Shown here: in pieces, positions 10,606 through 29,217 of the stretch
Layout: each line of letters starts with the position of its first letter
How positions within the stretch are numbered: position 1 is the stretch's first letter
Virus record (IMG/VR): IMGVR_UViG_3300015608_001846
Coordinates: 30,001-62,000 of that record
DNA from: a virus
Reading direction: 5' to 3' (one strand)
Length of the DNA: 32,000 nucleotides
The notes under the pieces: model-generated
Database searches by the model: none
Seen by the model: the letters and a program-made list of their open reading frames with translations, nothing else
Told to the model about the DNA's origin: nothing
Made by a program: the position numbers and the translations under genes

Positions 10606-11144
10606 ACTGCGGCACCGCTGGCGCCGCCCTCACCCGCGCGGTCTGCAGCGGGAGCTGGAAACTCTTCAGCGGCGACGTCTTCTTTGCTCTTGCCGATCTC
10701 TAGGCCGTGTGCCTGTCGCAGCACGTCGACAAATGCATCGACCACGTCAGGCTGGTACGACTTTGCCAAAAAGTTCTTGGCTCGGCGCATCAAGGTGTTC
10801 TTGATCTCGAGAAGGCTATCATAATTCTCGATCAACCTGACAACACCATTAACGAACGATTCCATGTCGATGGCGTCGGCAGCGAGCTTACCAGGTTCAG
10901 CAACGTCTTCTGCTTTATCCTCAGCGTCTGCTTCGTTGACGAGACGACGCGTCATCTGTCGAAAATCAAATCCTTCGTTCTTTGACGACTTTGCCTCGTT
11001 CTCAAAGTCAGCAAGGTATCGATCGACCTGTGAATCGAGCGAATCTTCTTCTTCGGGTGCTGGCTCAGTCGCATCAGCCTCGTGGACAAAGGCTTCAGCG
11101 ATCATTCTCCTCAGCTCTCCCAATGTGATCTTTGTCATCTTCAC
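10602..11144 (-). CDS. acidic hypothetical protein
   Basis: 180 aa from GTG 11144 (GTGA overlap), or ATG 11138. Acidic and Ala-rich. No family recognised. Confidence 0.6.
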   Translation of the reverse strand: MKMTKITLGELRRMIAEAFVHEADATEPAPEEEDSLDSQVDRYLADFENEAKSSKNEGFDFRQMTRRLVNEADAEDKAEDVAEPGKLAADAIDMESFVNGVVRLIENYDSLLEIKNTLMRRAKNFLAKSYQPDVVDAFVDVLRQAHGLEIGKSKEDVAAEEFPAPAADRAGEGGASGAAV

Positions 11145-11863
11145 TTGAGCACCTCATTGATCGATTCTGTGCGATTGAACCGCTCTTCGATCGTTGTCCA
11201 ATTGAACTCTCGCATTTGCGCGATGAGGTAACTCTTTTTGTCGCTCAGATAGTCACGGTAGTAAGCATGTTCATGCATGTCAACAACAATGACCGGGTAG
11301 ATGCCGACCATGACATCTTGGCTGTGATTGCTGACAAACGTGTTGACATACCTTTTCAGGAACATGTGGTAACCACATATGGCCCAGCCTTGTCCCGCAG
11401 ACAACGCACAAGCGATGAAATCCTTCTGAAAATCATCGAAGGTGCCGAAGTCACGCTCCAAGCGCAAGTATGCCATAGAATCCATGGTGATTTCACTGTG
11501 TGGGTCGAAGCAGTTGGCAAAGTACAGCTCATGCAGCCACACCGAGTTGATGTTGTACGTCTCATCGAGCTTCAGCGAACGAAAGTCGCTGTGCTGTGAA
11601 CTAGCATCCTGCCTCGAGGCCGAATCGAGCTGCGCAGAGACGTTATTCAGTGTTTGAACGTAACCCGTATAAAGCGTTCGGTGAGCGTCCTTGGTCTTTT
11701 GGCTAACCAGTTCAGACACCTGGCGATATGGCTTGGGCTCTGCAACGTAGGCTTCATTTAACCCGTCGTTGGGAAACAGGTCGGCTGGCAGCTTGACACT
11801 GTCACGTAGGATCTGATCGATGTCGATGGCCTTCAGCGAGTCAGCAAGCGGTTTCTTGTTCAT
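11141..11863 (-). CDS. Fe/Mn superoxide dismutase-like protein
   Basis: 240 aa from ATG 11863 (AAGGA 6 nt upstream; the track extends to 11938, overlapping the upstream ORF). SOD-family blocks: AHRTLYTGYVQTLNN (cf. H..KHH..YV..LN), SVWLHELYF (cf. WNH..FW), GQGWAICGY (cf. GSGW.WL) and VVDMHEHAYYRDY (cf. D.WEHAYY). The Asp and both C-terminal His ligands are present. Confidence 0.6.
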   Translation of the reverse strand: MNKKPLADSLKAIDIDQILRDSVKLPADLFPNDGLNEAYVAEPKPYRQVSELVSQKTKDAHRTLYTGYVQTLNNVSAQLDSASRQDASSQHSDFRSLKLDETYNINSVWLHELYFANCFDPHSEITMDSMAYLRLERDFGTFDDFQKDFIACALSAGQGWAICGYHMFLKRYVNTFVSNHSQDVMVGIYPVIVVDMHEHAYYRDYLSDKKSYLIAQMREFNWTTIEERFNRTESINEVLK

Positions 11864-11882
11864 CGTGCATCCTTTTACGACG

Positions 11883-12158
11883 TCAGTCGACTTCGTAGTC
11901 CTTCTCAAACTCTGCAGCGTCGACGAGGAACTGTTCACCTTCAGGTGTCTTCAGGATGACGTCGCGAGGCGAAACGCTGACGACAGTGTACCGGATTTGG
12001 CTGCGCTTGTGCCTGACCTTGAAATCTGGTGCGATGATTGGCTCATCCGTTACAGGTGAATCAAGCTTGACCTCCAAAGCCTCGCTGAGGCGTCTAACGC
12101 GAGCATCCCACTCTTCGCGCATCACTCGGATGACGTCTTGTTCTTCGAGCCTCTTCAT
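11883..12158 (-). CDS. hypothetical protein
   Basis: 91 aa, ATG 12158. No family recognised. Confidence 0.55.
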   Translation of the reverse strand: MKRLEEQDVIRVMREEWDARVRRLSEALEVKLDSPVTDEPIIAPDFKVRHKRSQIRYTVVSVSPRDVILKTPEGEQFLVDAAEFEKDYEVD

Positions 12159-12207: not shown

Positions 12208-12729
12208 TCAACCCTCCCAACTGGTGTAGAACCCTAGGGCCTCAGGGAGGCTCAACACCTCGACTCCGGCAGCACGTAATAGGTCACACCCCGACATGTC
12301 ACGATATGGACGATCGTAGACGACTCGAGTTAGTTGGGCGTTGATGCACAGCTTCGCACACAACCGGCAAGGCGCGTCAGTGACGTACATGTGTTTTTTC
12401 TTCCAAAAGTTGAAGTCGAGCTTCACCAGAGCGTTCTGTTCGGCGTGGATGAAACCTGACAGCCCGGGTTCGAGCGATTCAGGTTCATTGGGACCACCGC
12501 AATAGTTTCCATTGTATCCTACTGACAACACCTGTGTGTTGTCAGCAGAAACGACGATGGCTCCCACTTTCAACCGAGGATCGTACGATCGTTCGGCAAT
12601 GGTACGAGCGACGATCATCCATGTCTCGGGCCACGGTGGTCGTTCATAGTGACCACACCTGTCGCAGCGGCCATCGACAAACGTGTGATTCTGTCCAGTG
12701 ACGCACCAAGGCGCGCACCCGTAGCTCAT
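12208..12729 (-). CDS. dCMP deaminase (cytidine/deoxycytidylate deaminase family)
   Basis: 173 aa. WMIVARTIAERSYDPRLKVGAIVV, SVGYNG, zinc motifs HAEQNAL and PCRLCAKLC, and RVVY. There is an extra N-terminal Cys cluster (CAPWC...CDRCGH). Confidence 0.9.
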   Translation of the reverse strand: MSYGCAPWCVTGQNHTFVDGRCDRCGHYERPPWPETWMIVARTIAERSYDPRLKVGAIVVSADNTQVLSVGYNGNYCGGPNEPESLEPGLSGFIHAEQNALVKLDFNFWKKKHMYVTDAPCRLCAKLCINAQLTRVVYDRPYRDMSGCDLLRAAGVEVLSLPEALGFYTSWEG

Positions 12730-13277
12730 CAGATCCCCCTCGCTAGCTCGTGAAACCGAGCCAAGAATCGGTTCTCGGCATGCAACGGATCCCAGGGCAC
12801 GATGTTGAAGTCATAGGGTTCAAAGACGGCTGACATGCCCATCGTGCGGCCCCTGTCAATTCGCATGTCCCTAGCCTCAGTGACCGTCATACGATTGTCG
12901 ACCAATTTTACTGCGGTCGGCTCGCCTTGTGTGAGGCCGAACACGTCGCAGATCACGTTCATCAGGTGCGTCTCTGCCTCGCGGTAGAACGCAAACCCGG
13001 GATCACGCTTGACGGGTGACGGTACGTCAGTCAAGTACGCTTCTGAGGCATCGTGTAGCAGGCCCCACAACTGCAGTTCAGGCGGGCACATCATTGACAC
13101 CAACACCGAGTGCTGTGCCACCGAGTAGAACCTCATCAGGTGTCCCGCGAACCTCGCTGCGTTCGACAAGGCATGAGCGATGTCAACGATGCTGACTTCA
13201 TCCTGACGTGGGTCAAGCGGCCAGAACTTGAGTCCCGTGTACGTGGTGATGTAATCACCTCTGCGTTGCTCTTCCAT
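12729..13277 (-). CDS. HD-domain phosphohydrolase, YfbR-type 5'-deoxynucleotidase-like
   Basis: 182 aa. YSVAQHSVLVS and LLHDASEAYLTDVPSPVK closely match the E. coli YfbR block YHDASEVLTGDLPTPVK as I recall it. Confidence 0.7.
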   Translation of the reverse strand: MEEQRRGDYITTYTGLKFWPLDPRQDEVSIVDIAHALSNAARFAGHLMRFYSVAQHSVLVSMMCPPELQLWGLLHDASEAYLTDVPSPVKRDPGFAFYREAETHLMNVICDVFGLTQGEPTAVKLVDNRMTVTEARDMRIDRGRTMGMSAVFEPYDFNIVPWDPLHAENRFLARFHELARGI

Positions 13278-14412
13278 GCAATTGCTTGAATAGTAGGCTC
13301 TCTCGGCGAGCTAGTTCAAGACCAATTTCTTTGCCCACGAACCCCTCACCCACCAGGTCCTGACCTTTCACCGTCAGCTCATAGCTAGCAAATGACATCA
13401 ACATCGGGAACGATGGCAGGCCTCTGTTTCCCTGTGCATCGAACAGCTCCTCGTCAGTCACACGCAACCTGTTCTGACAACGCTTAAGTTCGAACGCTGC
13501 ATTGGTCGCATCCAGGCCTGCCAGGCCCTTGAAAAAGCACGTTCGATCGATCTCGTCAACGGTGTACTTCAAGTCGTGTAAGACCTGGCTTATCTTTTTT
13601 CGAGAATCATTAAGAATCACTGACAGGACGACAGGAACATTCGATGACTCAGGTCCAGCACTTGGCGCATGTGTGTCAGGGACGAGGCGGACATCGAGCC
13701 CCGGAAAGACCTGAGACCACATCTTGAAGCGTTCTAGAAGCGACAGATAGCAACGGCTCGACGACGAACCCGTGACGCCTTTGACAAACTCGTCATGGAT
13801 GCGTTCGGCAGCTAGTTCACTCAGGTCGTTGTCTGCTTCGATGGCACTCGCAGTCGCTGGATCGATGGAGAACCCAAAGCGAGCAGCGAACCGCAGGGCA
13901 CGCATGACACGCAATCGATCCTCACGGAAACGATCAACCGGAACGCCAACCGTTCTCACAACGTGATTCCGAAGGTCGGCCAGTCCTCCGACCAGATCTA
14001 CGACCTCATTCGTTGCAAGGTCGTAAAACAATGCATTGATCGTCAGGTCACGACGCTTGACATCTTCATCGATCGAGGTGAACGTGACATGCTCCGGTCG
14101 ACGACCCTCACCATGATCGATCCTGAAAGTCGCAATGTCGTACTCTGCGTTGGATCCAACCAACTTAACAACACCAAACGACTTACCGACAGCGGAGATC
14201 GAAAACCCATCTATGTCGTGGAGAAGTTCAATGACGTCCGTTGGGTGCAGGTTCGTCGCTAGGTCAATGTCATCGTGAGGCAAACGCATCAACGCGTCTC
14301 TGACAGCACCTCCGACGAGGTATAGCTTCGCACCTGCACGTTTGAAACGTGCAGCGATTCTATCGATGTCGCTAGATAACGAAATATCAAACCGCGTCCG
14401 TGAAGCCGACAT
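13255..14412 (-). CDS. tRNA nucleotidyltransferase (CCA-adding enzyme / poly(A) polymerase family)
   Basis: 385 aa from ATG 14412 (track start TTG 14418). Class II head-domain motifs: LYLVGGAVRDALM, DDIDLAT, ATFR, RRDLTINAL. No HD domain in this ORF. Confidence 0.85.
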   Translation of the reverse strand: MSASRTRFDISLSSDIDRIAARFKRAGAKLYLVGGAVRDALMRLPHDDIDLATNLHPTDVIELLHDIDGFSISAVGKSFGVVKLVGSNAEYDIATFRIDHGEGRRPEHVTFTSIDEDVKRRDLTINALFYDLATNEVVDLVGGLADLRNHVVRTVGVPVDRFREDRLRVMRALRFAARFGFSIDPATASAIEADNDLSELAAERIHDEFVKGVTGSSSSRCYLSLLERFKMWSQVFPGLDVRLVPDTHAPSAGPESSNVPVVLSVILNDSRKKISQVLHDLKYTVDEIDRTCFFKGLAGLDATNAAFELKRCQNRLRVTDEELFDAQGNRGLPSFPMLMSFASYELTVKGQDLVGEGFVGKEIGLELARRESLLFKQLHGRATQR

Positions 14413-14455
14413 GGACAAATGTTACCACCTTTGGGTGGCTTTTACATGTTGGTGT

Positions 14456-15034
14456 TCAGCCATCGATCCTCATCAAGGCTACTGGAGGAAAGTGCGCATG
14501 ACACCTAGGTTCATACATCTCATCGCCACCGATGCAAATCTCAGCCTGGTCATCATCGATCTGTTTCTTGTGAGTGTATCGAGCATCCTGCCCACAGACA
14601 GTGCAAACCGCAGTACACTTTTCCACGTGGGTTGCCCAAATTAGCAGCCTTTCAACCTCCTTAAAGGGCTTGCCTTGGGCAGAAACGTCTAACGTTGACA
14701 CGATGATGTCCTTGCCGCTGCGGTACAACCAGACCAAGACGTCAGCAACGTTATCGATCATGAATGCTTCATCGACTGCAACCACGTCAGGTTCACCATC
14801 GATGTTGGCTAGGGCTTCGATGATGTCAGGACCGGTACTGACAGTGATCGCGGGGACGCTCCACCCGCTGTGCGTAACGACGTCGCTGGTGCTGTAGCGC
14901 GTGTCGATCGCCGGCTTGAAGACGATCGCCTTTCGATGTTGGTGCTTGAAGCGCTCGAGATCCATCAACAACCTTGACGTTTTTGAGCTGAACATGCACC
15001 CGGTATACACCTTAAGGACTGGATTCATCTTCAT
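14456..15034 (-). CDS. tdk: thymidine kinase
   Basis: 192 aa. P-loop GCMFSSKTS, VVAVDEAFM, and the zinc-lasso Cys pairs CTAVCTVCG and ICIGGDEMYEPRC. Confidence 0.9.
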   Translation of the reverse strand: MKMNPVLKVYTGCMFSSKTSRLLMDLERFKHQHRKAIVFKPAIDTRYSTSDVVTHSGWSVPAITVSTGPDIIEALANIDGEPDVVAVDEAFMIDNVADVLVWLYRSGKDIIVSTLDVSAQGKPFKEVERLLIWATHVEKCTAVCTVCGQDARYTHKKQIDDDQAEICIGGDEMYEPRCHAHFPPVALMRIDG

Positions 15035-15067: not shown

Positions 15068-15631
15068 TCATGATGTAGTTTCTTCAAGCTCTAACTTCAA
15101 GATCGTGTAGGGCGGCTGCACGCCGGCACTAAAGTGAGATGCAGCATCGAGTGCCATCCTGATCCGTTCGAACGGGTCAAGGCACGTGTGTGTTGAATGC
15201 AACGAACCCAAAGCATAGCTCATCCCGCAGCCGATGGCTGCGTAGCCGTCCTTGTGTCGAGCGACCTGAAAATCTTCCTCAATGACAAAAAGCTCACCCC
15301 TATAGCCGAGCAAGAAACTGCCGCCTGATTCTTGCTCGTTTTCCTTCGTCAGGTAGCCTTTTTCATGGAAAAGGCCACGGACAGCATCGACGAAATCAGT
15401 CACCAGGTACGCCATCGAGTCTTTTCTCGATGGATGGTCAGGAACAGTCAACGCATAACGTAACAGCTGACCCATCCGGAACGACGAGGTGAAGCCCATC
15501 ATCATCTCATCGTTCATGAAGACCTTTTCGTCCAAACGAGACACGACATCAAGCGTGTCTGTGTCAATGGCGGCCGAGTCACCACCCATGTAAACGATGC
15601 CTTCGTGAACAAGACCGACGATGCAAGTCAC
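15068..15631 (-). CDS. proteasome-beta/HslV-like Ntn hydrolase, copy B
   Basis: 187 aa. The start is GTG 15631, 3 nt after the upstream stop. The N-terminus is M-TCIVGLV (Thr directly after the initiator). GGDSA gives Asp17 and DEKVF gives the Lys. Paralogous to copy A. Confidence 0.7.
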   Translation of the reverse strand: MTCIVGLVHEGIVYMGGDSAAIDTDTLDVVSRLDEKVFMNDEMMMGFTSSFRMGQLLRYALTVPDHPSRKDSMAYLVTDFVDAVRGLFHEKGYLTKENEQESGGSFLLGYRGELFVIEEDFQVARHKDGYAAIGCGMSYALGSLHSTHTCLDPFERIRMALDAASHFSAGVQPPYTILKLELEETTS

Positions 15632-15634
15632 AGG

Positions 15635-16177
15635 TCACTTTCCCTTCTTGACGCTGACGACACTGTAAGGAGGTCTGACTGTCGCATTGTTGCGGGTCGA
15701 TGCCTCGAGAGCATTGAAGAGGCGCTTCTTGGGATCACGTAAGGTTTCATTAGAATGCATGGCACCCAACGCAATGTCCGCGCCCGATCCAACGGCAGCA
15801 AACCTGTCAGAGGACGTAATGACCTGAAAGTTTCCCTGGATCCTGTACAATCCGCCGTTATAGCCCACGAGCACCTCACCAGAGAACTGGTCGCCTTCGA
15901 CACAACCACCGGCATCGAGAGCTGTCTTGAAGGCGTCAGCAAACGTTGACCCGATGAAACCACGGTCGTCAACGTCTTTCGGACGTTGTGGCAGCTCGAG
16001 TCGATACTTGATTGCGTCCATTACTTTTGGTGAACCACAGACGCCAAAGATGAACGACCCGACCTTAAAGACCTTCTTGTCACCGATGATGGTCTGCGCT
16101 CCAGAGCCTGACGTAGCTGCGCTGTCGCCTGCTAACCAAACAACGTTCCGATCAACCAATCCTACAATGCACGTCAT
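15635..16177 (-). CDS. proteasome-beta/HslV-like Ntn hydrolase, copy A
   Basis: 180 aa from ATG 16177 (GGAGG 5 nt upstream; track start TTG 16189). The N-terminus is M-TCIVGLV. AGDSA gives Asp17 and DKKVF gives Lys33. Other blocks: AAVGSG, ALGAMHS. Confidence 0.7.
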   Translation of the reverse strand: MTCIVGLVDRNVVWLAGDSAATSGSGAQTIIGDKKVFKVGSFIFGVCGSPKVMDAIKYRLELPQRPKDVDDRGFIGSTFADAFKTALDAGGCVEGDQFSGEVLVGYNGGLYRIQGNFQVITSSDRFAAVGSGADIALGAMHSNETLRDPKKRLFNALEASTRNNATVRPPYSVVSVKKGK

Positions 16178-16192
16178 CTGAACCTCCAAACT

Positions 16193-16852
16193 TCAATCTA
16201 CTAGGTGAAAGTGCCGTTCGTACAAGTGCAAGGATCCGGCGTGCCACAACATGTCTCCCAACGGGACCCCTAGCTCGTTGCCGAGCTGCTGGTGAACGTG
16301 GTCCTGCCACGCTTTGTCGTTTTTATAGCCAAAGACGACGTCGTTCGATCGCATCCTGACGCATGCGATCAGCTTGTCGTCACGGATGAAGTACTGTGCA
16401 GAGTCGGTGCAGATGAAGTCGCTCATGCCATCAACGTTGTAGTCACGCCAGATCGAAGGTCGAGTGTAGATCATCTCCGCACGTCGACTAGTCGGGTTGG
16501 CTCTTAACTCGTCGCGGACGTGCTCGTACTGCTTGCCGTTGGCCTCGCTCCAGATCAAGTAACCGTAGTTGGAATTGATGTTCCCTGCATGCGAAGAGCA
16601 CGCTCTCCACGCTGCGGGAGCTCCGCCCGGGATGTCATTGATGTTGAGTGATTGTGACTTGTACCACTCGATCTCTCGAGAGACATAGTCCTCGTTGACA
16701 GTGCCGAAGATCGAACGCTCGTCAGCGACGAACGTCGCTCCGATGATCTCGATCACCTTGCAACCCGTCTTGTCCTGGACAAATTCGCCGCGCGCTTTCA
16801 ATTCACCGAACTGCGCCCGGAGCTGAGCAACGTTCTGCATATGATAGATCAT
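16193..16852 (-). CDS. dCMP hydroxymethylase (thymidylate-synthase fold, T4 gene 42 type)
   Basis: 219 aa. Full-length resemblance to T4 gp42 as I recall it: DKTGCKVIEIIGATFVADE, EWYKSQSL, INSNYG, SRRAEMIYTRPS, DGMSDFICT (Cys148), MRSNDVVFGYKND (Asp179, where TS has the dUMP-selecting Asn) and GSLHLYERHFHLVD. Confidence 0.8.
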   Translation of the reverse strand: MIYHMQNVAQLRAQFGELKARGEFVQDKTGCKVIEIIGATFVADERSIFGTVNEDYVSREIEWYKSQSLNINDIPGGAPAAWRACSSHAGNINSNYGYLIWSEANGKQYEHVRDELRANPTSRRAEMIYTRPSIWRDYNVDGMSDFICTDSAQYFIRDDKLIACVRMRSNDVVFGYKNDKAWQDHVHQQLGNELGVPLGDMLWHAGSLHLYERHFHLVD

Positions 16853-16876
16853 CTTGTTTTTTCTCTCTTTTCTGTG

Positions 16877-17032
16877 TCAGCGGTGCTCGAGTTGTTCAAC
16901 ACGTGTCTCCAGGTTGTAGATCCGGATCTGATACGCACAATCCTTCATCAGTAGGATGATGATGCCTAAGGCAAGAGCGACCATGACAGTGTGATCACTG
17001 ACGTCGTTCGTTCGTTGCTGTGTCTTCTTCAC
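16877..17032 (-). CDS. candidate small membrane ORF (below track cutoff)
   Basis: This ORF fills an otherwise 180-nt gap. It gives 51 aa from GTG 17032 or 35 aa from ATG 16984: ..MVALALGIIILLMKDCAYQIRIYNLETRVEQLEHR, one hydrophobic span. There is no further support. Confidence 0.3.
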   Translation of the reverse strand: MKKTQQRTNDVSDHTVMVALALGIIILLMKDCAYQIRIYNLETRVEQLEHR

Positions 17033-17033
17033 G

Positions 17034-18005
17034 TCACACTCTCAGCTTCAGCGTTCGAAACAAAGGCTCGTTGATGGCCCACTCGATCGTACGTTCTAAG
17101 CCATCTGAGAAAGAGACCAGGGGCCTGTACCCAAGGACCTGTTCTGCACGAGACACATCAGCCAACGTATGCATAACGTCTCCAGCACGCCACGGGGTTG
17201 ATTCGACTGTCGCGGCCGGGAATCGTAGCCGTAGCCTGTCGATGATCTCATTGTTAGTCACGCTCTCACCACACGCAACGTTGAAGGGCGCGCCCTTCAA
17301 CTCACCGTCGAATGAACCAGCTCGGATGCATGCATCGACGACGTTATCAACGTAACACATGTCACGTGACTGCGTCCCATCTCCGTCGCTCCGCATCGGT
17401 CGACCGTCGACGATGGCCGACAACCATGCTGAGACAGCGGTGGCATAAGGCGATGATCCCAACTGGTTCGGACCAAAGACGTTGAAGAACCGAAGACACG
17501 CTGAATCTAGACCGTAGAGCTCACTGTACAGTTTGAGGTACTGTTCAATGATCAGCTTTTGCAACGCATAAGGTGACTTTGGTTGCAAGGTTGAGTCTTC
17601 GTGCGTCGCCTGTCCGGCTTCGACGCCGCCGTACACAGAACTAGACGATGCAAACACAAGCCGCTTGACGTTACTTACACACGCATCCATCAACTTTAAG
17701 GTCTTGCTAACGTTGGTCTCGTTCGTCTCTAGAGGATGCTCTACAGAGTAACTGACACGTGGCACTGCTGCCAGGTGAAAGACAACGTCGTACTGCTTGC
17801 GTTTGACAGCGTTCAGTACAGAATCAGACGCAAAGTCACACCAGTGTGCGACCGTGGACGCATCCGTCAAAAACTCCCAACGACCGTTGCTGAGGTCGTC
17901 ACAACCAAAGACCTCCCAATCATCCAGGGTCTGCAATCGGTTAAACAAGTTGCTACCGATGAACCCCGCAGCCCCTGTGACCAGCGCTCTACGCCTCTTA
18001 CGCAT
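17034..18005 (-). CDS. NAD-dependent nucleotide-sugar epimerase/dehydratase (extended SDR)
   Basis: 323 aa. Rossmann motif LVTGAAGFIGSNL, FASSSSVYG, catalytic YxxxK (SPYALQK), and RFFNVFGP. This is closest by eye to 4-epimerase-type enzymes. Confidence 0.8.
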   Translation of the reverse strand: MRKRRRALVTGAAGFIGSNLFNRLQTLDDWEVFGCDDLSNGRWEFLTDASTVAHWCDFASDSVLNAVKRKQYDVVFHLAAVPRVSYSVEHPLETNETNVSKTLKLMDACVSNVKRLVFASSSSVYGGVEAGQATHEDSTLQPKSPYALQKLIIEQYLKLYSELYGLDSACLRFFNVFGPNQLGSSPYATAVSAWLSAIVDGRPMRSDGDGTQSRDMCYVDNVVDACIRAGSFDGELKGAPFNVACGESVTNNEIIDRLRLRFPAATVESTPWRAGDVMHTLADVSRAEQVLGYRPLVSFSDGLERTIEWAINEPLFRTLKLRV

Positions 18006-18037
18006 GCAACCAAACTACACTCAGTCGTTAAACTAGT

Positions 18038-18427
18038 TCAACAGCACAAGGTCGGTCTCAAGGTCACGTATGTGAAGGCAGAGTTCTTGACCCGGCGGCG
18101 GCGCGTTTCGTCAATTGATCTTGTCAGCTCGTCGAGCGCAGTTGCCACAGCAAACATCGACGCCTCTGACCATGCCTGACCCACCTGTACTCGAGCTGAT
18201 TCTAGGTCTGACCAAGCGCGGTCGAGGCACTCAATGATCGAACTTTCGTCGCTAGCTGTGACCAGCTTGACCAGATCGTCATCGGCACCCGCTACGTACA
18301 ATGCCTCTCCGAAACGGCTACGCATGTCTCCGTAGGTCGTCGGCGGCAGCTTGCGCCGTGCATCACGTTCATCAAGAGCAGCTTCGATCTCTTCGCGGAT
18401 CAACTGACGTACGTCATTGACATCCAT
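18038..18427 (-). CDS. hypothetical protein
   Basis: 129 aa, ATG 18427. No family recognised. Confidence 0.6.
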   Translation of the reverse strand: MDVNDVRQLIREEIEAALDERDARRKLPPTTYGDMRSRFGEALYVAGADDDLVKLVTASDESSIIECLDRAWSDLESARVQVGQAWSEASMFAVATALDELTRSIDETRRRRVKNSAFTYVTLRPTLCC

Positions 18428-18629
18428 TTGACGTTAACTATCGTCCCAAGCATGCCGGTTCACAACTGTCCCCGGGACGTACGTGGCCAAACAACAACGT
18501 TCCATTTTTGGCGTCGTCGACGCCAACCCAACCTCTGAAGGTCTTCCTCTGTCAGGCTGCCTAGCAACCCGTGTGGGTGCGAGTTGTCCCTGTCGTCGGT
18601 TTGACAGGTGGGTCTTGTGCATCGATTTT

Positions 18630-18893
18630 TCACCCGATCTCTTCCTCTTGTGTCGTTGTCGTCAGATGGATTGATGCTAACATTTGTCGCTTTTCGTCAT
18701 CGAGCAACTTAAGATCGATCTCAAAAAACGCAGCAAGGAGGTCTTTCAACGTTAGGTCTGACACCGGCGTATCATCACGCCACGAAAGTCGAATGTCGTG
18801 GTGGTCACGTAACCACTGTAAAAAATCATAGATTGATTGTGACTGGTCCTTGATGAGTGCTAGCGCCGCGTGTTGAGGATAGCGACCTGTCAT
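18630..18893 (-). CDS. hypothetical protein
   Basis: 87 aa, with an ATGA overlap with the upstream glycosyltransferase-like ORF. No family recognised. Confidence 0.55.
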   Translation of the reverse strand: MTGRYPQHAALALIKDQSQSIYDFLQWLRDHHDIRLSWRDDTPVSDLTLKDLLAAFFEIDLKLLDDEKRQMLASIHLTTTTQEEEIG

Positions 18894-20182
18894 AGCCCCA
18901 TGCGTTCCATGGCTGATGTTGTTGTCGACTCAAACGAACAACGCTGACGCACAACGCGTTGCAATGACCTTACATCGTGACGGCTTTGTTCGAGGCCGAC
19001 GTTGTCTAACATGTGACACAACCCATCGACCAAGTCAGAAAAGTCAGGCTTGCACAAAACACCTGGCGTTTGGGCCTCACGAGCGATCGTAGAATATTCG
19101 TAGTTATCGAGCCACAGTGGCATACATCCTAGCTCAACGCATTCTCGAGCAGCGGTACCGCCGTACGAATCCTGATCGTATAGGCCGAGGGCGATGTCGG
19201 CTTCACGAGCGACAACCTTGAATTCATCACGCGTGAACGCATCTGGCACCAGGCTGACGTAACCGTTTGGCCCACACTCTTTGGTGAGTTCTTCGTTGGA
19301 AAACTTCTGGCTGGGGTTGCCAGCGATGACAACAAAGTCCTGTCTCAACTTCCGCAGCTCCGGCAGCAGCTCGAACATGAACTTCCCACAGTTGGTGTAA
19401 TCGCTCGACCTGCCCCTGCCCCCGATGCGGTTGGGAACAAAGATGATGCGCTTGCCTGCGTTCTTCCACTCACGCAGGCGCCCCGGGTCAAACCTGACGT
19501 CGTCGACGACGACCGGAGACGTGATCTCAGTTGCTGAGTACCCGTCGTCCCAAGGCTGTGACTTTTCTGCCACCTCGAGCACGAGGTCAGGGAGGAACTG
19601 GCGTCCCATCGATTGAAAGAAAACATTCATCGATGACTCACACTGCCAGAAGTTGACGTCAGCCTTGATGGCGGCTTCACACTGTCCCAACCACAACGAT
19701 GCTTCAGTCGGAAACTTCGGACACTCTAGATTGTCAATGAAATGGTTGTGAACGATGAACTTGGGCTGGCGCTTCTGCACTACGTGGAACAACGCCTTGA
19801 ACGCACGTAGGTGCATCGGATCATTGATGTACACTGCCGTGTACGGCTCCTGGCCGACCAGTTTGGCCATGGCACGCCAATCAAAGTCGTACCGAGTCAC
19901 CAGCGCATTACTGATGATGTTGTGTGGCCGGTACTGGAGACGCCCGTCACCGTCGGGACCATGCGCATCCCACAATTCTGAATTGATCTGCGCTGGATCA
20001 TTGATCACCTGACGGGGTGCCTCCAACAGCGGTCCAGTGATGTCGATGTGAAGCTCGGGATCGAGTTTCAACATCTCGCGACACCGGTTGATGCACATCT
20101 GCCAACCAGAATCGCATTCAAGTAGAAACTTACCTTTTGTATCGTAGTTCGAGAGCTGCGTCTGCACCAGCATGCGCTTCAT
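18890..20182 (-). CDS. GT-B fold glycosyltransferase-like protein
   Basis: 430 aa. The C-terminal half resembles GT1/GT4 donor-binding domains: IIFVPNRIGGRG, VVIAGNP, ADIALGLYDQDSYGGTAARECVELGCMPL (E-x7-E-like). The N-terminal half is not recognisable. Confidence 0.5.
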   Translation of the reverse strand: MKRMLVQTQLSNYDTKGKFLLECDSGWQMCINRCREMLKLDPELHIDITGPLLEAPRQVINDPAQINSELWDAHGPDGDGRLQYRPHNIISNALVTRYDFDWRAMAKLVGQEPYTAVYINDPMHLRAFKALFHVVQKRQPKFIVHNHFIDNLECPKFPTEASLWLGQCEAAIKADVNFWQCESSMNVFFQSMGRQFLPDLVLEVAEKSQPWDDGYSATEITSPVVVDDVRFDPGRLREWKNAGKRIIFVPNRIGGRGRSSDYTNCGKFMFELLPELRKLRQDFVVIAGNPSQKFSNEELTKECGPNGYVSLVPDAFTRDEFKVVAREADIALGLYDQDSYGGTAARECVELGCMPLWLDNYEYSTIAREAQTPGVLCKPDFSDLVDGLCHMLDNVGLEQSRHDVRSLQRVVRQRCSFESTTTSAMERMGL

Positions 20183-21714: not shown

Positions 21715-22305
21715 TCATTTGACTGTGATTGTGTCGTACAGGGCTCCCCCACCGACGTCTCGGAAGTGATCTTGCAACCACTGATCGCACTGTCGACAAT
21801 GCTCAATCGATTCAATCACATCGTCGACCGCGCGATGGGCTTCTCCCTTGGGGAAGGGTGACATCCCCTTGCTTTGGCAGAACAGCTTGACGGTCGATAC
21901 GTCAAAGATCCGGTGTGACATGCGTGACATGACGGTCGGCATGTCACGCATCAAGAAGCTCATGTCAAAGTGGACGCTGCTGCCAGCTAACATCCACATG
22001 TCAGCACGGTTAGCGACAACAGGCACCAATTCAAGAAGATCACGTTCAACGTCAGCGATCGTCACTGTTGAGGCGGCAGCCTCGAGCAACAAGCCATTTT
22101 CAGTGTGCGTTTTCAACACCCACGGGTCAAGCTTGTCCCAGTTATCCCGGGCATAGTGTAACACGGTGTGGTACGCTGGTTTAGCCTGATACGGGCTACG
22201 TACGTCAGCTACCGACACTGCAACTTCCAGGACCTGGTCGTGTTGTCGATCGAGGCCCGTGGTCTCGATGTCTAACCAGAGGAGCTTCATCTCAGGATTC
22301 CTCAT
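21715..22305 (-). CDS. orn: oligoribonuclease-like DEDDh 3'-5' exonuclease
   Basis: 196 aa from ATG 22305, or 191 aa from ATG 22290. LLWLDIETTGLD (Exo I), KTHTENGL, AGSSVHFDMSFL (Exo II), HRIFDVSTVK and HRAVDDVIES (Exo III with His) track E. coli Orn block for block. Confidence 0.85.
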   Translation of the reverse strand: MRNPEMKLLWLDIETTGLDRQHDQVLEVAVSVADVRSPYQAKPAYHTVLHYARDNWDKLDPWVLKTHTENGLLLEAAASTVTIADVERDLLELVPVVANRADMWMLAGSSVHFDMSFLMRDMPTVMSRMSHRIFDVSTVKLFCQSKGMSPFPKGEAHRAVDDVIESIEHCRQCDQWLQDHFRDVGGGALYDTITVK

Positions 22306-22634: not shown

Positions 22635-23243
22635 TTACGCTGACAGCATCATAGACCGTTCAAGCTCAGTGTAACCCATGAATCGCAGGACCTCGTCGGT
22701 CTCCCGATCGAGGTCCTCATCGTCGACGTTCAACACCATCGATTCACACTTGGTGTAACCTTCAACGAAGTACATGTACGCCCTTGATAGCTGTGTCAAC
22801 CGTGTTGAGTCGAGATTGGGATCGATGTCATCAACGATCCCATCGTAGCTTGACCGGACGCAGAGGACGATCTGTGCGCCCAATTCTGCGTAAGCGTTGT
22901 CAGCTGCGGCGATGGCCACGTAATCAGTCTCACGCTGGAGGACTGACGAGTAGACGAGCTCACACGGATACCCACGATCAAAGATGATCGAGTACCCCGT
23001 CTGACGAAGCACGTCGGCGACCCTGGGATCAGCGTATCGTAGTTCATTAACGAACCTATCCTTTCTTGACAGGTAGGTCGATCGCTCTAAGGAGGCCTTA
23101 AAGTAAGGAATCCCCGTCAATCGTGACACGTTCTGTGCGATGTTGGTTTTTCCCGTCATGTCAGGGCCGACAAAAAAGGTGACACGTTGGACATCGAGCA
23201 CCCGACCCGTCCGTAGATCTAACAGACCACGCATGGACCCCAT
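22635..23243 (-). CDS. P-loop nucleoside/nucleotide kinase (thymidylate/deoxynucleoside kinase-like)
   Basis: 202 aa. Walker A FFVGPDMTGKT and an FDRGYPCELVYS block like the DR(Y/S) substrate motif of dNMP/dN kinases. It does not look like T4 gp1. Confidence 0.55.
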   Translation of the reverse strand: MGSMRGLLDLRTGRVLDVQRVTFFVGPDMTGKTNIAQNVSRLTGIPYFKASLERSTYLSRKDRFVNELRYADPRVADVLRQTGYSIIFDRGYPCELVYSSVLQRETDYVAIAAADNAYAELGAQIVLCVRSSYDGIVDDIDPNLDSTRLTQLSRAYMYFVEGYTKCESMVLNVDDEDLDRETDEVLRFMGYTELERSMMLSA

Positions 23244-23266: not shown

Positions 23267-23821
23267 TCACTGCACCTGTTCGTAATTCACGTACGTGCCG
23301 TGGCAGCCTGTCCCAACACGTACGTGACCCAAGTGTTCGCAGAAGACCAGGTACTGCGCAGTCTCGTGTTCAATGACGACGATGGTGCCGGTTTCAGTCT
23401 CACCTTTTGCACGAGAAAAGGTGACCTGGTCACCGATGCGGTGCCTTGGCGTCACGTTGTTCGAGCGGACCCAGTCTTTCACGGTCTTGCGGTGGATCGC
23501 ATAGCGTTTGGCAGCCACCTCGCTCATCAGGTCGACAAGCCGAGCGTCGACGGTCCACGTCCGCGACTCAAGCGATCGACAGATCTCATACGCATCATCG
23601 GTGAGTTCAATCGACTCGATCAGGTCAGCTCGGACGTCGCTGATCATCTCCTCATCAAAGACGGTTGAGGCCGAATTGAGCTCAGACTTCAGGTATGCAA
23701 TCACCTTGGGCAACAAGGCCTCGACGGTCTCACGAGAGACCTCGAGGTCAAAAAGCGCTGGACGTTTGGGAGCAATCATGATCGATTTTACCTCGCATGG
23801 CGCGCCATGCACCATGTGCAC
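23267..23821 (-). CDS. hypothetical protein
   Basis: 184 aa from the track start GTG 23821; ATGs at 23815 and 23779. It overlaps the end of the GIY-YIG ORF. No family recognised. Confidence 0.55.
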   Translation of the reverse strand: MHMVHGAPCEVKSIMIAPKRPALFDLEVSRETVEALLPKVIAYLKSELNSASTVFDEEMISDVRADLIESIELTDDAYEICRSLESRTWTVDARLVDLMSEVAAKRYAIHRKTVKDWVRSNNVTPRHRIGDQVTFSRAKGETETGTIVVIEHETAQYLVFCEHLGHVRVGTGCHGTYVNYEQVQ

Positions 23822-24674
23822 ACGACTTGGTTGACAGCGCCAAGCGACCGTCGATGACCCTGTTCACTGTCGATGGTCGTACACCGCACGATGTCGCAAT
23901 TGTTCGCAGATCAACGCCTTGTGCATGCAGCCCCAGGATCTCAATCACCGGAACGACGAACTGTCGACTGTCGTCGTTGGCTATGCACTTGACTGCGTAG
24001 TAAGAAATGTTCCAAGCGTCAGCAACCTGACGCGGACTGTTTCCCAATGACGATAGCTGCGCCTTGACAGATTGAACGTCGGCAGGCACAACGACAACGT
24101 TTGATCTCTTGGAACCTAGGTGAGCCAGTGATCGTCGGCGGCGGGCTTCAGTCGTTCTCATCGATTCGCACATGAGGTCTCTGTTCGAGCGCCACTGCTC
24201 AGAGCACCGTTCGCTTCTGATCGTGCGAAGTTCTGCCGTGTACGAGCTGCCCACCGCACGAGAAAGCGATCGTTTGTACTCAGGTGAAGCACGAACAATT
24301 GTCATGTCGACCTTCGATAGGGACTCCTTTACGCGCCTTGAGATTTTCTGTCGAACCTCGAGCGTCGGCGAGCTACCTCCTAAACCTCCACTCGTTTCAT
24401 TGTAGAGGCGCTCTCCGGCGTCAGAGAGTTGCTCGCACAGCGCCATTTCAAAGGCGAAGGCTGACGGTTCATCGATGAAGCTTTGGACGATCGTCAGGTC
24501 AAAATTGGCACACCCATACGTCATGATCGCACGGTGAAATGTTAACGTCGATCCCTTCATGGCGTCGCGACAGTGTCGACGCCAGCGTCTGTGTGGATGG
24601 ATCGATTTTCCGACGTACTTGTGACCATTCGTCAGATTGGTCACAACGTAGACGAATGCCTCACGTTGTGACAT
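23748..24674 (-). CDS. free-standing GIY-YIG homing endonuclease (Seg/I-TevI-like)
   Basis: 308 aa. GIY-YIG core FVYVVTNLTNGHKYVGKS, RRWRRH, FEMALCE, LYNETSGG. NUMOD3-like repeats (SPTLEVRQKISRRV, SPEYKRSLSRAV) and a C-terminal HTH (GVDLRTIATSCGVRPSTVNRVI). Confidence 0.85.
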   Translation of the reverse strand: MSQREAFVYVVTNLTNGHKYVGKSIHPHRRWRRHCRDAMKGSTLTFHRAIMTYGCANFDLTIVQSFIDEPSAFAFEMALCEQLSDAGERLYNETSGGLGGSSPTLEVRQKISRRVKESLSKVDMTIVRASPEYKRSLSRAVGSSYTAELRTIRSERCSEQWRSNRDLMCESMRTTEARRRRSLAHLGSKRSNVVVVPADVQSVKAQLSSLGNSPRQVADAWNISYYAVKCIANDDSRQFVVPVIEILGLHAQGVDLRTIATSCGVRPSTVNRVIDGRLALSTKSCAHGAWRAMRGKIDHDCSQTSSAF

Positions 24675-25317
24675 CGTTTCTCGTGAAGACAGCGGTGTTT
24701 TTCCTGTAGAAGGAGGCCAGCTTCTTGATCTTTTGAAACGATGACGTCAATGCTTCGTCGTACAAGTAGCCCCTTCCAGTTAGGATCGGCACAACTTCAT
24801 CTTTGCCGCGGCAGTTGTAATGATGACGTCCCCACTGGCCTGGTTCCGCACACGACAGGATCAACGTCTTGGGTTTGAAGGCCAGCAGGTTGTCGATGAA
24901 GGTGGACTCGAACTCCTCAGGGATGTGCTCGTAGACCTCGAGCGACACGACCAGGTCGTATGAACTTTTCGTGTCGAGTTCCGACAGCGGCTTCGTCAGA
25001 TCGTGGCACAAGTAACACTCTGGCGGGATCGCGAGCATCGCCTCCGCGCCAGTCGAAAAATCGATCCCGAGGACCTTCTTTTTCTCGACGAGGGGCACCA
25101 AAAAGTCGCCGCAACCGCAGCCTACATCGACGATCGAATCAAACTGCAGGTTCTGCTCGAGCCACTCAGCGTAGTGCGCGATGCCCTTGTCGTAATACTT
25201 CCGGTGCTTCTCGTAGAAGCCAACATCATACGTTTCCGATTCTTTCTGTGGGTCCCAACCCTTGTAGCGCTTGGACTTGGCAACCTTCTTGACGAGCTTT
25301 TGCGTGTCTTCAGACAT
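24661..25317 (-). CDS. class I SAM-dependent methyltransferase
   Basis: 218 aa. Motif I IVDVGCGCGDF, motif II VLGIDFS, and DLVVSLEVYEHI. No DNA-methyltransferase DPPY or PCQ motif seen. Confidence 0.75.
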   Translation of the reverse strand: MSEDTQKLVKKVAKSKRYKGWDPQKESETYDVGFYEKHRKYYDKGIAHYAEWLEQNLQFDSIVDVGCGCGDFLVPLVEKKKVLGIDFSTGAEAMLAIPPECYLCHDLTKPLSELDTKSSYDLVVSLEVYEHIPEEFESTFIDNLLAFKPKTLILSCAEPGQWGRHHYNCRGKDEVVPILTGRGYLYDEALTSSFQKIKKLASFYRKNTAVFTRNDVTT

Positions 25318-25403: not shown

Positions 25404-26504
25404 TCACGTTATCTCCTTCACGCGCCACATCGTGGTCGAGAACCCGTAGTCGTTGCGGTCGACCTCGCCCAACACCAGCGCATATGCCGGGAATTCCCGG
25501 ATGCCGTCCCAACCCCACGCATTCATCCGGTACGTCCGACCCTCGGGTCCCTGCACCGTCAACAGGAGGTACTGCTTGCCGTTCTTTGTCTTCTTTGGTT
25601 TGGCCTCCATGATGACAAACCAGTAGATGTCGCGCTTGTCCCAGTCATCGACTGAACGAACGCCCTTCTCTAGGAGGCGATCGATGAGCTCAGGTTCGAC
25701 CATCGTCAACACGTCGAAGCTACCGAAAGCCTCGATCTTGTGCTCAGCAAGCTCCCGGCGCGTCCACTCTTCTTCAAACTCTTCAGCCAACGCACGAGCC
25801 AGCGCATAGAAGTTCTTGCGACCCTCGTGCGGGTCCTTCTTTGATGTCCGTTTGATGAGGGTCGCATGGTCACGGATGCGCTCGACGATCTCGTCGGAAC
25901 CCTTGCGCCTGGGTACCTCCTCGGTATAGGAACCCATCAACGTCTCATGCATGTGCCTGTACGACTTGAAGACCTTGTCAGGACCGACGCACCCTAGAGA
26001 GTCAAAGGCACGGATCTTGATGAGCACCTCGAGCGCCTTGCGGTTGAACTTCGACGGGCGCCAGCTGCCGTCCTCGTTCCACAGCACGTCCTCGATCGAG
26101 GCGTACGGGCGACTGGAGACGATCTCTTCGGCGGCTGTCTGTCCGATTCCCTTGCACGACAGCAGGCTGGGCATCAACCGCTTGCCGGGCAGCACTGTCC
26201 ACCCCAGTCCGGCCTCGTTGATGTCGATGGGTACGATGGTGTAACCTAGCTGCTTCACCTCGCTGAAGGCCTTCGCTTTCTTGTCGGGCGAGTTTGACAT
26301 AGATTCGATGTAGGCTGTGATCCACTGTTCCTCGTGGTACGTCATCAACCAGGCACACCAGAACGAATCGATTGCGTACGCCACTGCGTGGCTGTTCGAC
26401 GTCAACATGCCGTTGGCAAGGTAGAACTGGTGATCTGGATGCTCGACCTCGAGGTCGAACGTCTGGTGTTTACCTACCGGAGTGATTGACTTGATGTTTG
26501 TCAT
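25404..26504 (-). CDS. dnaE: split-intein C-half (b) fused to DNA polymerase III alpha C-terminal piece (fragment 4)
   Basis: 366 aa. It begins MTNIKSITPVGKHQTFDLEVEHPDHQFYLANGMLTSN, then SHAVAYAIDSFWCAWLMTYH (DnaE block KSHaaAYa...lk.hyP). Helix-hairpin-helix-like and OB-fold-like regions follow (KRDIYWFVIMEAKPKKTKNGKQYLLLTVQGPEG). ATGA overlap with the upstream ORF. Confidence 0.85.
   Translation of the reverse strand: MTNIKSITPVGKHQTFDLEVEHPDHQFYLANGMLTSNSHAVAYAIDSFWCAWLMTYHEEQWITAYIESMSNSPDKKAKAFSEVKQLGYTIVPIDINEAGLGWTVLPGKRLMPSLLSCKGIGQTAAEEIVSSRPYASIEDVLWNEDGSWRPSKFNRKALEVLIKIRAFDSLGCVGPDKVFKSYRHMHETLMGSYTEEVPRRKGSDEIVERIRDHATLIKRTSKKDPHEGRKNFYALARALAEEFEEEWTRRELAEHKIEAFGSFDVLTMVEPELIDRLLEKGVRSVDDWDKRDIYWFVIMEAKPKKTKNGKQYLLLTVQGPEGRTYRMNAWGWDGIREFPAYALVLGEVDRNDYGFSTTMWRVKEIT
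26394..26504 (-). mobile_element. split intein b, C-terminal half (37 aa)
   Basis: Blocks F/G: TFDLEVEHPDHQFYLANGMLTSN, followed by +1 Ser. The size and pattern resemble known IntC fragments. The penultimate residue is Ser rather than His. Confidence 0.75.
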
Positions 26505-26770
26505 TTCTTGACGTCTCTGACCAATGCCTCTAGCCTCTTGGATGCCCTGCGTCGTTGGGCCTTGTCACACTGTTCGTCACAGTAATCATCGGAGGGCTCG
26601 AGTTCAACAGCCACAGGAGGGCACCGCAACCTCATCGCGTGCTGCAGAAGCTCGATGGGCGACAGGCCCATCCTGGCAGAGATGTCATTCAGCGCTTCTT
26701 CAAACGAAGGTCGCTGCATAGGCCTCTCCGATTCGATGGACGCCCGGCTTTGGATCGCGCAGGTGTTCAA
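26501..26770 (-). CDS. small hypothetical protein inside intein-b gap
   Basis: 89 aa from the track start; ATG 26719 gives 72 aa (MQRPSFEEALNDISARMGLSPIELLQHAM...). Its stop overlaps the ATG of the IntC-b ORF. Confidence 0.45.
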   Translation of the reverse strand: MNTCAIQSRASIESERPMQRPSFEEALNDISARMGLSPIELLQHAMRLRCPPVAVELEPSDDYCDEQCDKAQRRRASKRLEALVRDVKK

Positions 26771-27737: not shown

Positions 27738-27943
27738 TTTACTTTTTCTCCGGTGTTCAGCTCAACCTCAACCAGATCAAGAACACCATGATCGTGTTTC
27801 GATTTGACAGTGACGATTACGTTTTCACCTGTCTTTTCATCGCGCGTCATGACAAGATCGCCAGCTTCAACGTGCTGAAGCTGTTTGGTTGTGATGACTC
27901 TACCATCCAAATTATAAATATTCACTAGTTCTGAAAAGTGACA
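27539..27943 (-). mobile_element. split intein b, N-terminal half
   Basis: It starts at Cys codon 27941..27943: CHFSELVNIYNLDGRVITTKQL (block A) and TWDHKF (block B, TxxH). About 100 aa look intein-like. A ~30-aa basic tail then runs on to the stop while overlapping the endonuclease ORF in another frame. Confidence 0.75.
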
Positions 27944-28315: not shown

Positions 28316-28790
28316 CGTCCACCTCGACAATATCGAACTCATCAAAACAACACACTTCTTGATCGAGCTTGCCGTCTTTCAACCCTTCGAAAAGACCTGA
28401 ACCAGTGCTACGATTGTAGAACATCGCATCATTGTCACGATAGTCGTCAATGAGTTTCACCTCAGTCCCAGCATCGAACCATTCATCGGGACGAGAAATG
28501 TATTTGACACGCTTAATTGGCTGGAGAGTTGCAGATGAAAAGAAGCCTTCAGCCCCATCACGCATCATCTTGACGTGAACAATTCTCTCGTTAAGATGAT
28601 CTGTTTGCAGGCGTTCACCCTCGTCAACTAGCCTGATCACATTGGGACATGCAGTCGTCTTCTCTATCCATAGTGGGTCAAGAGGCGACGGATGGTGTGG
28701 ACACGCACGCCAGTCGTGTTGACGTTGACGCTCGAGCAGGCAAAACACACCTGTCAAGTGCGTGTAACAAACAACGTAATCCCTCATCAT
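28308..28790 (-). CDS. hypothetical protein inside intein-a gap
   Basis: 160 aa. ATGA overlap with the upstream ORF, and its stop overlaps the IntC-a start. No family recognised. Confidence 0.55.
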   Translation of the reverse strand: MMRDYVVCYTHLTGVFCLLERQRQHDWRACPHHPSPLDPLWIEKTTACPNVIRLVDEGERLQTDHLNERIVHVKMMRDGAEGFFSSATLQPIKRVKYISRPDEWFDAGTEVKLIDDYRDNDAMFYNRSTGSGLFEGLKDGKLDQEVCCFDEFDIVEVDDA

Positions 28791-29215: not shown

Positions 29216-29217
29216 GT

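Follow-up and report, generated by a model that had tools for sequence, protein, structure and literature searches.

A candidate cytosine-hypermodification cassette with a gp42-type dCMP hydroxymethylase and an undescribed GT-B glycosyltransferase family in an uncultured jumbo phage

The stretch analysed here (the window; 32,000 nucleotides, positions 30,001 to 62,000 of the IMG/VR virus record IMGVR_UViG_3300015608_001846) carries a group of genes that points to glycosylation of 5-hydroxymethylcytosine (hmC) in phage DNA. All genes between 12 and 25 kb of the window lie on the minus strand. The group comprises a 219-aa predicted dCMP hydroxymethylase of the T4 gp42 type (16193..16852), an extended short-chain dehydrogenase/reductase (SDR) of the nucleotide-sugar 4-epimerase type (17034..18005), a 430-aa GT-B glycosyltransferase (GT) of an undescribed family, predicted to act on hmC in DNA (18890..20182), and a P-loop nucleotide kinase of the RB69p045 / DLP3 gp78 type (22635..23243). 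A first-pass annotation had read this region as a glycosyl-hmC cassette with its own sugar-nucleotide epimerase. The hydroxymethylase, the GT-B enzyme and the tie between them are borne out below, whereas the epimerase as a dedicated part of the cassette and the special weight given to a DnaE-type polymerase are not.

Hydroxymethylase, glycosyltransferase and kinase

In phmmer searches, the predicted hydroxymethylase matched T4 dCMP hydroxymethylase (PDB 1b49) at E=1.3e-74 over residues 4-219, and the runner-up matches were thymidylate synthases at E~1e-11. The protein is 55% identical to T4 gp42, 28% to RB69 gp48 and 23% to E. coli ThyA, and its alignment with 1b49 is gapless over residues 4-195, where T4 residue numbering holds. 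The catalytic C148 (E. coli C146) and the general base E60 (E. coli E58) are aligned and invariant. D179 occupies the position of E. coli N177 and D145 that of E. coli L143, and D171, within 'RSND', retains E. coli D169. Read on the minus strand, Cys148 is encoded by TGC at 16411..16409 and Asp179 by GAC at 16318..16316, both where the first-pass annotation had placed them; Asp145 is GAC at 16420..16418 and Asp171 is GAC at 16342..16340. The signature at positions 145/148/171/179 is D/C/D/D, as in T4, versus E/C/N/D in RB69 gp48 (with 'RSQN') and L/C/D/N in E. coli ThyA.

The gp42-like enzymes of RB69, DLP3 and RL38JI were reported in 2026 to make 5-hydroxy-dCMP, not 5-hydroxymethyl-dCMP (PMC13326640). 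According to the rules given there in E. coli ThyA numbering, N177D confers dCMP specificity, an acidic residue at L143 goes with a non-methyl product, and D169N marks the 5-hydroxy synthases; the rule for Asp at N177 and an acidic L143 is likewise found in PMC8670742. D179, D145, the retained D171 and the 55% identity to gp42 together make the predicted assignment as a T4 gp42-type dCMP hydroxymethylase solid, in agreement with the identity first proposed for this thymidylate synthase homologue from its match to T4 gene 42. Asp at the D169 position and the identity to gp42 led us to reject an RB69-type 5-hydroxy-dCMP synthase as its identity.

The GT gave no match in Pfam (E<=0.01), PHROG or NCBIfam, none by tblastn against 50,697 phage records, and none when its profile was compared with PDB sequences. 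An AlphaFold2 model built on 52 homologues (predicted local distance difference test score, pLDDT, 94.1; predicted template-modelling score, pTM, 0.90) shows the two-Rossmann architecture of the GT-B fold, and Foldseek aligned it with GT-B glycosyltransferases at a probability of 1.00 and template-modelling (TM) scores of 0.6-0.67, including HepE, BshA, OtsA, PimA and glycogen synthase. The GT-B-like character first suggested for this open reading frame (ORF) is thus upheld by the model. Structural neighbours of the predicted fold are retaining enzymes of families GT4/GT5/GT20, and the best match among viral models was the glycosyltransferase of Arthrobacter phage Kitkat. As judged from the model, the likeness to GT4-like retaining enzymes is structural only: PF00534 (Glycos_transf_1) gave no match, and D338-x8-E347 stands in place of the strict E-x7-E. 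The search for metagenomic homologues gave 412 at E<=0.001, and the 120 matches listed show identities of ~56-66%, on contigs as long as 351 kb. Among 185,579 cellular genomes, scanned with two strict peptide patterns only and hence at low sensitivity, none gave a relative of the GT. The isoelectric point of the GT (5.4, against 6.1 for T4 α-GT and 9.0 for T4 β-GT) is uninformative.

The kinase has a P-loop, GPDMTGKT, at residues 26-33. Its profile matched RB69p045 by hhalign with a probability of 94% (E=9e-8) and the kinase of the PolA-type phages described below with E=5e-6, and weak PDB matches were obtained to deoxyguanosine kinase (2jaq) and YorR (2axp), the latter also reported as a fold match for DLP3 gp78 (PMC13326640). 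All clade loci with coverage have it upstream of the GT, and none of 30 hydroxymethylase-negative loci has it, so that it co-varies with the hydroxymethylase. The P-loop, the homology to RB69p045 and the linkage to a GT and a thymidylate synthase homologue place it with the RB69p045 / DLP3 gp78-type kinases. Further upstream on the minus strand lies a class I S-adenosylmethionine (SAM) methyltransferase (24661..25317; Methyltransf_12/23/25/11). Its homologues occur in 11 other loci, all positive for both hydroxymethylase and GT-B, and abut the kinase wherever the kinase is in view; in the window, a GIY-YIG homing endonuclease (23748..24674, minus strand) and a 184-aa ORF stand between the methyltransferase and the cassette kinase. 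The methyltransferase could be a cassette accessory, for example a sugar O-methylase.

Distribution of the genes across related loci

Two sets of loci were compared. The GT-anchored set consists of 34 IMG/VR loci fetched by the GT profile and 2 ENA loci. The other set consists of 80 loci fetched by a conserved superoxide dismutase (SOD) gene, of which 72 had 9 kb or more of sequence upstream and were counted. In the GT-anchored set, all loci with downstream coverage have a thymidylate synthase homologue within a few kb of the GT, invariably with the D/C/D/D signature. This slot holds at least three hydroxymethylase subfamilies, whose identity to the window protein is 48-72% or as low as 26-36%, and all of them carry D/C/D/D. 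Among the 72 SOD-anchored loci, 22 have both hydroxymethylase and GT-B, 20 have the hydroxymethylase and no GT-B, none has GT-B and no hydroxymethylase, and 30 have neither. The DnaE end is in view in 29 of the 30 hydroxymethylase-negative loci, and their DnaE-to-SOD interval is wholly covered and simply shorter.

The 20 loci with a hydroxymethylase and no GT-B show what else can occupy the slot. Twelve of them hold, in the place of GT-B, a 341-348-aa glycosyltransferase (L047:2823-3848, L052:2792-3817, L062:2245-3288 and L080:2010-3056, for example) that is a distant relative of T4 β-GT: the sole meaningful match of its profile in the whole PDB was T4 DNA β-glucosyltransferase 1bgt (E=2e-4; hhalign E=1.7e-4). 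The GT-B profile showed no similarity to this β-GT-like enzyme by hhalign. Another five (L059, L065-L067 and L071) have no GT and a carbamoyltransferase (PF16861/PF02543) adjoining the hydroxymethylase, as at L066:3307-5076 and L059:4294-6060; an ATP-grasp partner was additionally observed in three of them, L065-L067 (L066:2036-3310). Carbamoyltransferases of this type turn 5hmC into 5-carbamoyloxymethyl-C, and the MetaGPA 5hmC carbamoyltransferase system follows a like modular logic, combining a D177-type thymidylate synthase homologue with an enzyme that decorates the 5-CH2OH group (PMC8670742); these five loci have the carbamoyltransferase in the slot where the window has a glycosyltransferase instead. 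GT-B, the β-GT-like GT and the carbamoyltransferase were all absent from the 30 hydroxymethylase-negative loci.

On a rough, single-gene neighbour-joining tree of SOD without support values, some relatives exchange the hydroxymethylase subfamily and keep GT-B, others exchange the decorator and keep the hydroxymethylase, and hydroxymethylase and decorator are also lost together in close relatives; on this tree, therefore, the association does not trace back to one inherited event. The same association recurs in L039 and L041, two PolA-type contigs with a family A polymerase that share none of the jumbo-clade backbone. Within ~4.5 kb, they hold a PRA-PH/MazG-type pyrophosphohydrolase (dCTPase-like), a GT-B homologue 33-37% identical to the window GT (hhalign E=2e-62), a Tmk-like kinase and a D/C/D/D thymidylate synthase homologue. 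Since the combination of hydroxymethylase, GT and kinase is also found with PolA polymerases, its pairing with DnaE is not unusual, contrary to the first-pass annotation; T4-like phages have a family B polymerase. The regions L041:6647-13504 and L039:3694-10161 hold an FkbM-family methyltransferase as well and make up a compact hmC cassette, perhaps one with sugar methylation, in a lineage unrelated to the clade. Three findings support a functional tie of the GT-B family to the hydroxymethylase: their co-occurrence is strict, GT-B shares its slot with hmC-modifying enzyme types, and the PolA phages have such a cluster too. Taken together, the results from the GT-anchored and SOD-anchored sets, the slot, the tree and the PolA phages are best explained if GT-B is a transferase directed at hmC.

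The SDR behaves differently. It matches PF01370 (Epimerase, 1.8e-51), confirming the enzyme type given to it at first, and is intact, with G11xxG14xxG17, S121-123, Y146 and K150 aligned to WbgU and 6dnt. Its nearest solved structures are UDP-N-acetylhexosamine (UDP-HexNAc) 4-epimerases, namely 6dnt of M. ruminantium (5e-53), followed by WbgU, PelX and WbpP. With these extended-SDR UDP-hexose/HexNAc 4-epimerases it shares full-length similarity in the 35-37% range, the GxxGxxG NAD motif, the Ser/Tyr/Lys triad and an 'RxGDxxH[ST]xAD' block. The block reads 'RAGDVMHTLAD' in the window protein versus 'RSGDVRHSQAD' in WbgU, so that Thr280 replaces the Ser of all four; we take that Ser to be the gatekeeper admitting N-acetylated substrates, and use the replacement as a lead only. 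The scores fall far below the NCBIfam equivalog cut-offs (138.7 against 262 bits for GalE TIGR01179; 144.4 against 760 bits for TviC NF011728), and the substrate of the SDR is therefore not assignable.

Within the SOD-anchored set, the SDR is present in 40 of the 42 hydroxymethylase-positive and 24 of the 30 hydroxymethylase-negative loci, and in 21/22 loci with GT-B and 43/50 without, which is no real enrichment. It is retained where the carbamoyltransferase replaces the GT. No SDR homologue is in view in the GT-B-positive L031/L079, L039 and L041, and the sole SDR match in L034/L084, likewise GT-B-positive, is weak (23%) and lies beyond SOD. In hydroxymethylase-negative genomes, the SDR stands immediately before thymidine kinase, often with a second SDR alongside. 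The co-variation with GT and thymidylate synthase homologue that would mark a dedicated sugar-donor enzyme was not seen. Its presence in 24/30 hydroxymethylase-negative loci and its absence from some GT-positive ones therefore identify its adjacency to the cassette as conserved backbone synteny: the SDR is a clade backbone gene, not a dedicated cassette part. The argument that a phage with its own dedicated epimerase carries a sugar other than plain glucose on hmC finds no support here, as the gene occurs in those 24 loci without hydroxymethylase, kinase or decorator. The SDR may nevertheless supply the donor sugar to the GT. Two more groups of SDR 'Epimerase' paralogues were observed in the clade (L045:6423-7418, L047:3856-4845 and L066:5744-6733; L002:421-1452 and L080:1027-2013), one of them directly upstream of the window-type SDR, hydroxymethylase-negative genomes included. 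These paralogues hint that the clade has a nucleotide-sugar pathway of several steps that has nothing to do with hmC.

Phage clade and neighbouring genes

Two long contigs have the gene order of the window: DnaE, then the P-loop kinase, then the GT, then SDR, thymidylate synthase homologue, two HslV-like genes, thymidine kinase, CCA/poly(A) polymerase, dCMP deaminase and SOD. The window therefore derives from a clade of uncultured jumbo phages whose replicase is DnaE, and the cassette is a modular cytosine-hypermodification set within the DnaE-to-SOD interval of such a phage. A megablast search of 12 kb against the INPHARED phages returned no match, and the phage thus has no close cultured relative. 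Hosts of the GT-B family are phages of 200-370 kb from groundwater, freshwater and soil metagenomes.

Downstream of the cassette, Pfam and PHROG matches identify a dCMP deaminase (12208..12729), an HD 5'-deoxynucleotidase-like protein (12729..13277), a CCA/poly(A) polymerase-type nucleotidyltransferase (13255..14418) and thymidine kinase (14456..15034), all on the minus strand. Together with hhalign for the P-loop kinase, these matches establish the nucleotide-metabolism neighbours that the first-pass annotation had named. Thymidine kinase and dCMP deaminase are present in hydroxymethylase-negative relatives too and are therefore backbone genes. The nucleotidyltransferase of CCA-adding/poly(A) polymerase type is present despite the absence of any tRNA gene in the window, where Rfam and tRNA scans gave no matches; promoter and terminator scans gave counts no higher than background. 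The SOD gene (11141..11938) encodes a Fe/Mn superoxide dismutase with an N-terminal extension and is found clade-wide. Immediately downstream of the hydroxymethylase, two HslV/proteasome-β-like Ntn-hydrolase genes stand in tandem on the minus strand (15068..15631 and 15635..16189). Both proteins begin with MTCIVGL and match phrog_1040 (E 4e-22 and 7e-25); the pair is conserved in many clade members, and none was seen in hydroxymethylase-negative loci.

Between the SDR and the GT lie two small minus-strand ORFs, one of 129 aa (18038..18427) without a family match, also found in L002, L003, L008, L012 and L037, and one of 87 aa (18630..18893) with only a weak match to phrog_21869. In L002, an ORF directly upstream of the GT (9757-9996) has an Acb2/Tad1-hairpin domain of the anti-CBASS/anti-Thoeris sponge type, which suggests that the region gathers counter-defence genes. 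Elsewhere in the window, an oligoribonuclease-like exonuclease (21715..22305; NCBIfam 121 bits against a cut-off of 106) and, by NCBIfam and Pfam scans, a nitrilase/CN-hydrolase (6890..7645) were identified.

The DnaE gene of the window is broken into at least three ORFs over 25404..31655 on the minus strand, whereas in relatives it encodes a single intact protein of 1179-1205 aa. Its pieces are the N-terminal part of the finger (29900..30637), an intein C-terminal splicing block with the remaining finger (27539..28345) and HHH_6 (25404..26504). ORFs inserted among them carry NUMOD/I-HmuI-like motifs (30615..31655), C2H2 zinc fingers (29218..30048) and a Ros/MucR domain (26700..27737). The Rfam scan of the window detected no intron at the split gene.

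Proposed pathway and rival readings

These genes probably form a pathway that would begin with the gp42-type enzyme converting dCMP to 5-hydroxymethyl-dCMP with methylene-tetrahydrofolate, a step that is well supported. The RB69p045-type kinase would then, judging from its homology and linkage, phosphorylate hm-dCMP towards hm-dCTP, which the phage DnaE replicase would incorporate. Finally, as suggested by its fold, strict co-occurrence and slot-sharing, the GT-B enzyme would take a sugar from a nucleotide-sugar and attach it, in the manner of T4 α-GT and β-GT, to the 5-CH2OH of hmC in DNA, and the glycosylated genome would thereby be protected from host nucleases.

The closest precedent is the T-even hmC system (gp42, gp1 kinase, gp56 dCTPase, α-GT and β-GT). 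The window hydroxymethylase is an orthologue-grade homologue of that of the T-even phages and lacks none of the catalytic and specificity residues; in both, the base would be hydroxymethylated while still a nucleotide and then glycosylated by a GT-B-fold enzyme, and dCMP deaminase and thymidine kinase accompany both. Unlike the T-even system, the window has a kinase of the RB69p045/YorR type where T4 has gp1, a DnaE in place of a family B replicase, and a slot that in sister genomes holds alternative hmC-decorating enzymes. The arabinosyl/hexosyl-5-hydroxycytosine clusters of RB69, DLP3 and RL38JI (PMC13326640) share with the window a core of Tmk-like kinase, GT-B and thymidylate synthase homologue; the kinases are homologous, and the GTs have like PDB fold neighbours (BshA, PimA, 7qsg). 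The thymidylate synthase homologue of these clusters, which makes 5-hydroxy-dCMP, is D169N, whereas that of the window is gp42-like and keeps the Asp, and their dedicated sugar-nucleotide pathway travels with the cluster, whereas the window SDR does not co-vary. Phage-borne sugar-nucleotide enzymes are thus not without precedent, and the claim that they are is out of date.

Several observations weigh against the proposed pathway. By hhalign, the GT profile reached a probability of 0.5% against each of T4 α-GT and T4 β-GT and showed no similarity to RB69 gp46/gp47; the GT therefore belongs neither to GT72 (α-GT) nor to GT63 (β-GT), and the claim is that it works like these T-even enzymes, not that it is one of them. 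A Pfam scan of all sizeable ORFs in the 32-kb window revealed no dCTPase/MazG, and tblastn with RB69 gp56, the PolA-phage PRA-PH and a gp56-like ORF of the clade revealed no dCTPase there either. Only L021, L030 and L040 have such a gp56-like ORF close to the cassette, at ~5 kb upstream of the GT. That no dCTPase is seen in the window is a further difference from the T-even phages, and replacement of C in the window phage may therefore be incomplete. No decorating enzyme occurs within the flank of the hydroxymethylase-positive L081, L094 and L117, so that undecorated hmC appears viable in the clade. The co-occurrence counts are not phylogenetically independent, their independence being judged on the single-gene SOD tree without support. 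We infer all functional steps beyond homology, and likewise the identity of the sugar, its anomeric configuration and the acceptor (DNA versus nucleotide). Finally, the hydroxymethylase ends ~27 residues short of the C-terminus of T4 gp42: its end, '...HLYERHFHLVD', lacks the 'HFxKTGExxIxxxxYxxxYP' tail of the T4 protein and of many clade relatives (L002:13567-14328 and L004:13966-14730, for instance), and the next gene begins 4 nt downstream with no remnant of a tail. The short form is common to the sub-clade of L012, L014, L018, L025 and L033 (67-72% identical), and its occurrence in several relatives means that it is not an assembly artefact.

That missing C-terminus, together with the close gp42 homologues in Straboviridae that have been shown to make 5-hydroxy-dCMP, is what favours reading the enzyme as an RB69-type 5-hydroxy-dCMP synthase, a dCMP methylase or a plain thymidylate synthase. 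We consider this very improbable in view of the Asp at the E. coli D169 position, which is Asn in the 5-hydroxy-dCMP synthases, the Asp residues at L143 and N177, which go with a non-methyl product and dCMP specificity, and an identity to T4 gp42 well above that to RB69 gp48 or ThyA. It is likewise improbable, if somewhat less so, that the GT-B enzyme, with or without the SDR, modifies something other than DNA (virion proteins, host envelope precursors or a small molecule, for example) and leaves plain hmC in the DNA. This would fit its nearest structural neighbours, which are GT4/GT20 enzymes acting on small molecules, lipids and polysaccharides, its top viral matches, which are actinophage glycosyltransferases with unknown acceptor, its lack of sequence similarity to known DNA glycosyltransferases, and the three hydroxymethylase-positive loci without a decorator. 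The studied DNA arabinosyltransferases, however, yield like fold matches (BshA, PimA, 7qsg), and the GT-B family is missing from all 30 hydroxymethylase-negative loci, alternates in its slot with β-GT-like and 5hmC-carbamoyltransferase-type enzymes, is located among replication and nucleotide-metabolism genes, and recurs beside a dCTPase-like gene, kinase and hydroxymethylase in unrelated PolA phages; the low-sensitivity scan that found no relatives in cellular genomes points the same way.

A dedicated role for the SDR has more in its favour and is nonetheless unlikely. In such a scheme it would convert a host UDP-sugar into the donor of GT-B (UDP-GlcNAc to UDP-GalNAc, or UDP-Glc to UDP-Gal), yielding a non-glucose glycosyl-hmC. 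In most GT-positive loci, as in the window, the gene sits between GT and hydroxymethylase, the enzyme is of an intact 4-epimerase type with UDP-HexNAc 4-epimerases as nearest relatives, and phage sugar-nucleotide enzymes feed DNA glycosylation in RB69, DLP3 and RL38JI. Against this stand its retention both in most loci without hydroxymethylase, kinase and decorator and in those with a carbamoyltransferase in place of the GT, its absence from view or weak distal match in the GT-B-positive loci named above, its near-equal frequency with and without GT-B, and scores far under the equivalog cut-offs. More elaborate, and rather doubtful, is the idea that GT-B constitutes a third, hitherto unrecognised family of hmC-DNA glycosyltransferases that in this phage would use the product of the adjacent 4-epimerase (e.g. 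UDP-GalNAc/UDP-Gal) and create a DNA glycoform undescribed on hydroxymethylcytosine, with the kinase-adjacent SAM methyltransferase methylating the sugar in a subset of phages. The pathway from hydroxymethylase through kinase and DnaE to a GT-B-borne sugar on hmC, with the SDR as a backbone gene, thus remains the reading that we prefer.

The working principle of a GT-B enzyme combined with a hydroxymethylase is most likely that already known from T-even hmC-glucosylation, and what would be new is a GT-B family without detectable sequence relation to the characterised DNA glycosyltransferases. The SDR calls for caution, as a sugar-nucleotide enzyme encoded beside a DNA-modification gene can be taken to share its pathway only if the genes co-vary. 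Should the prediction prove right, the ~430-aa GT-B family would represent a new class of DNA-modifying glycosyltransferases with more than 400 metagenomic members and no Pfam or PHROG model, and would be an enzyme source for 5hmC labelling chemistry. The DnaE-to-SOD interval would then be a "plug-and-play" site in which three hydroxymethylase subfamilies are combined with three decorating chemistries (the new GT-B, the β-GT-like enzyme and the carbamoyltransferase), and would offer a compact comparative system for the diversification of phage DNA hypermodification against restriction and CRISPR defences.

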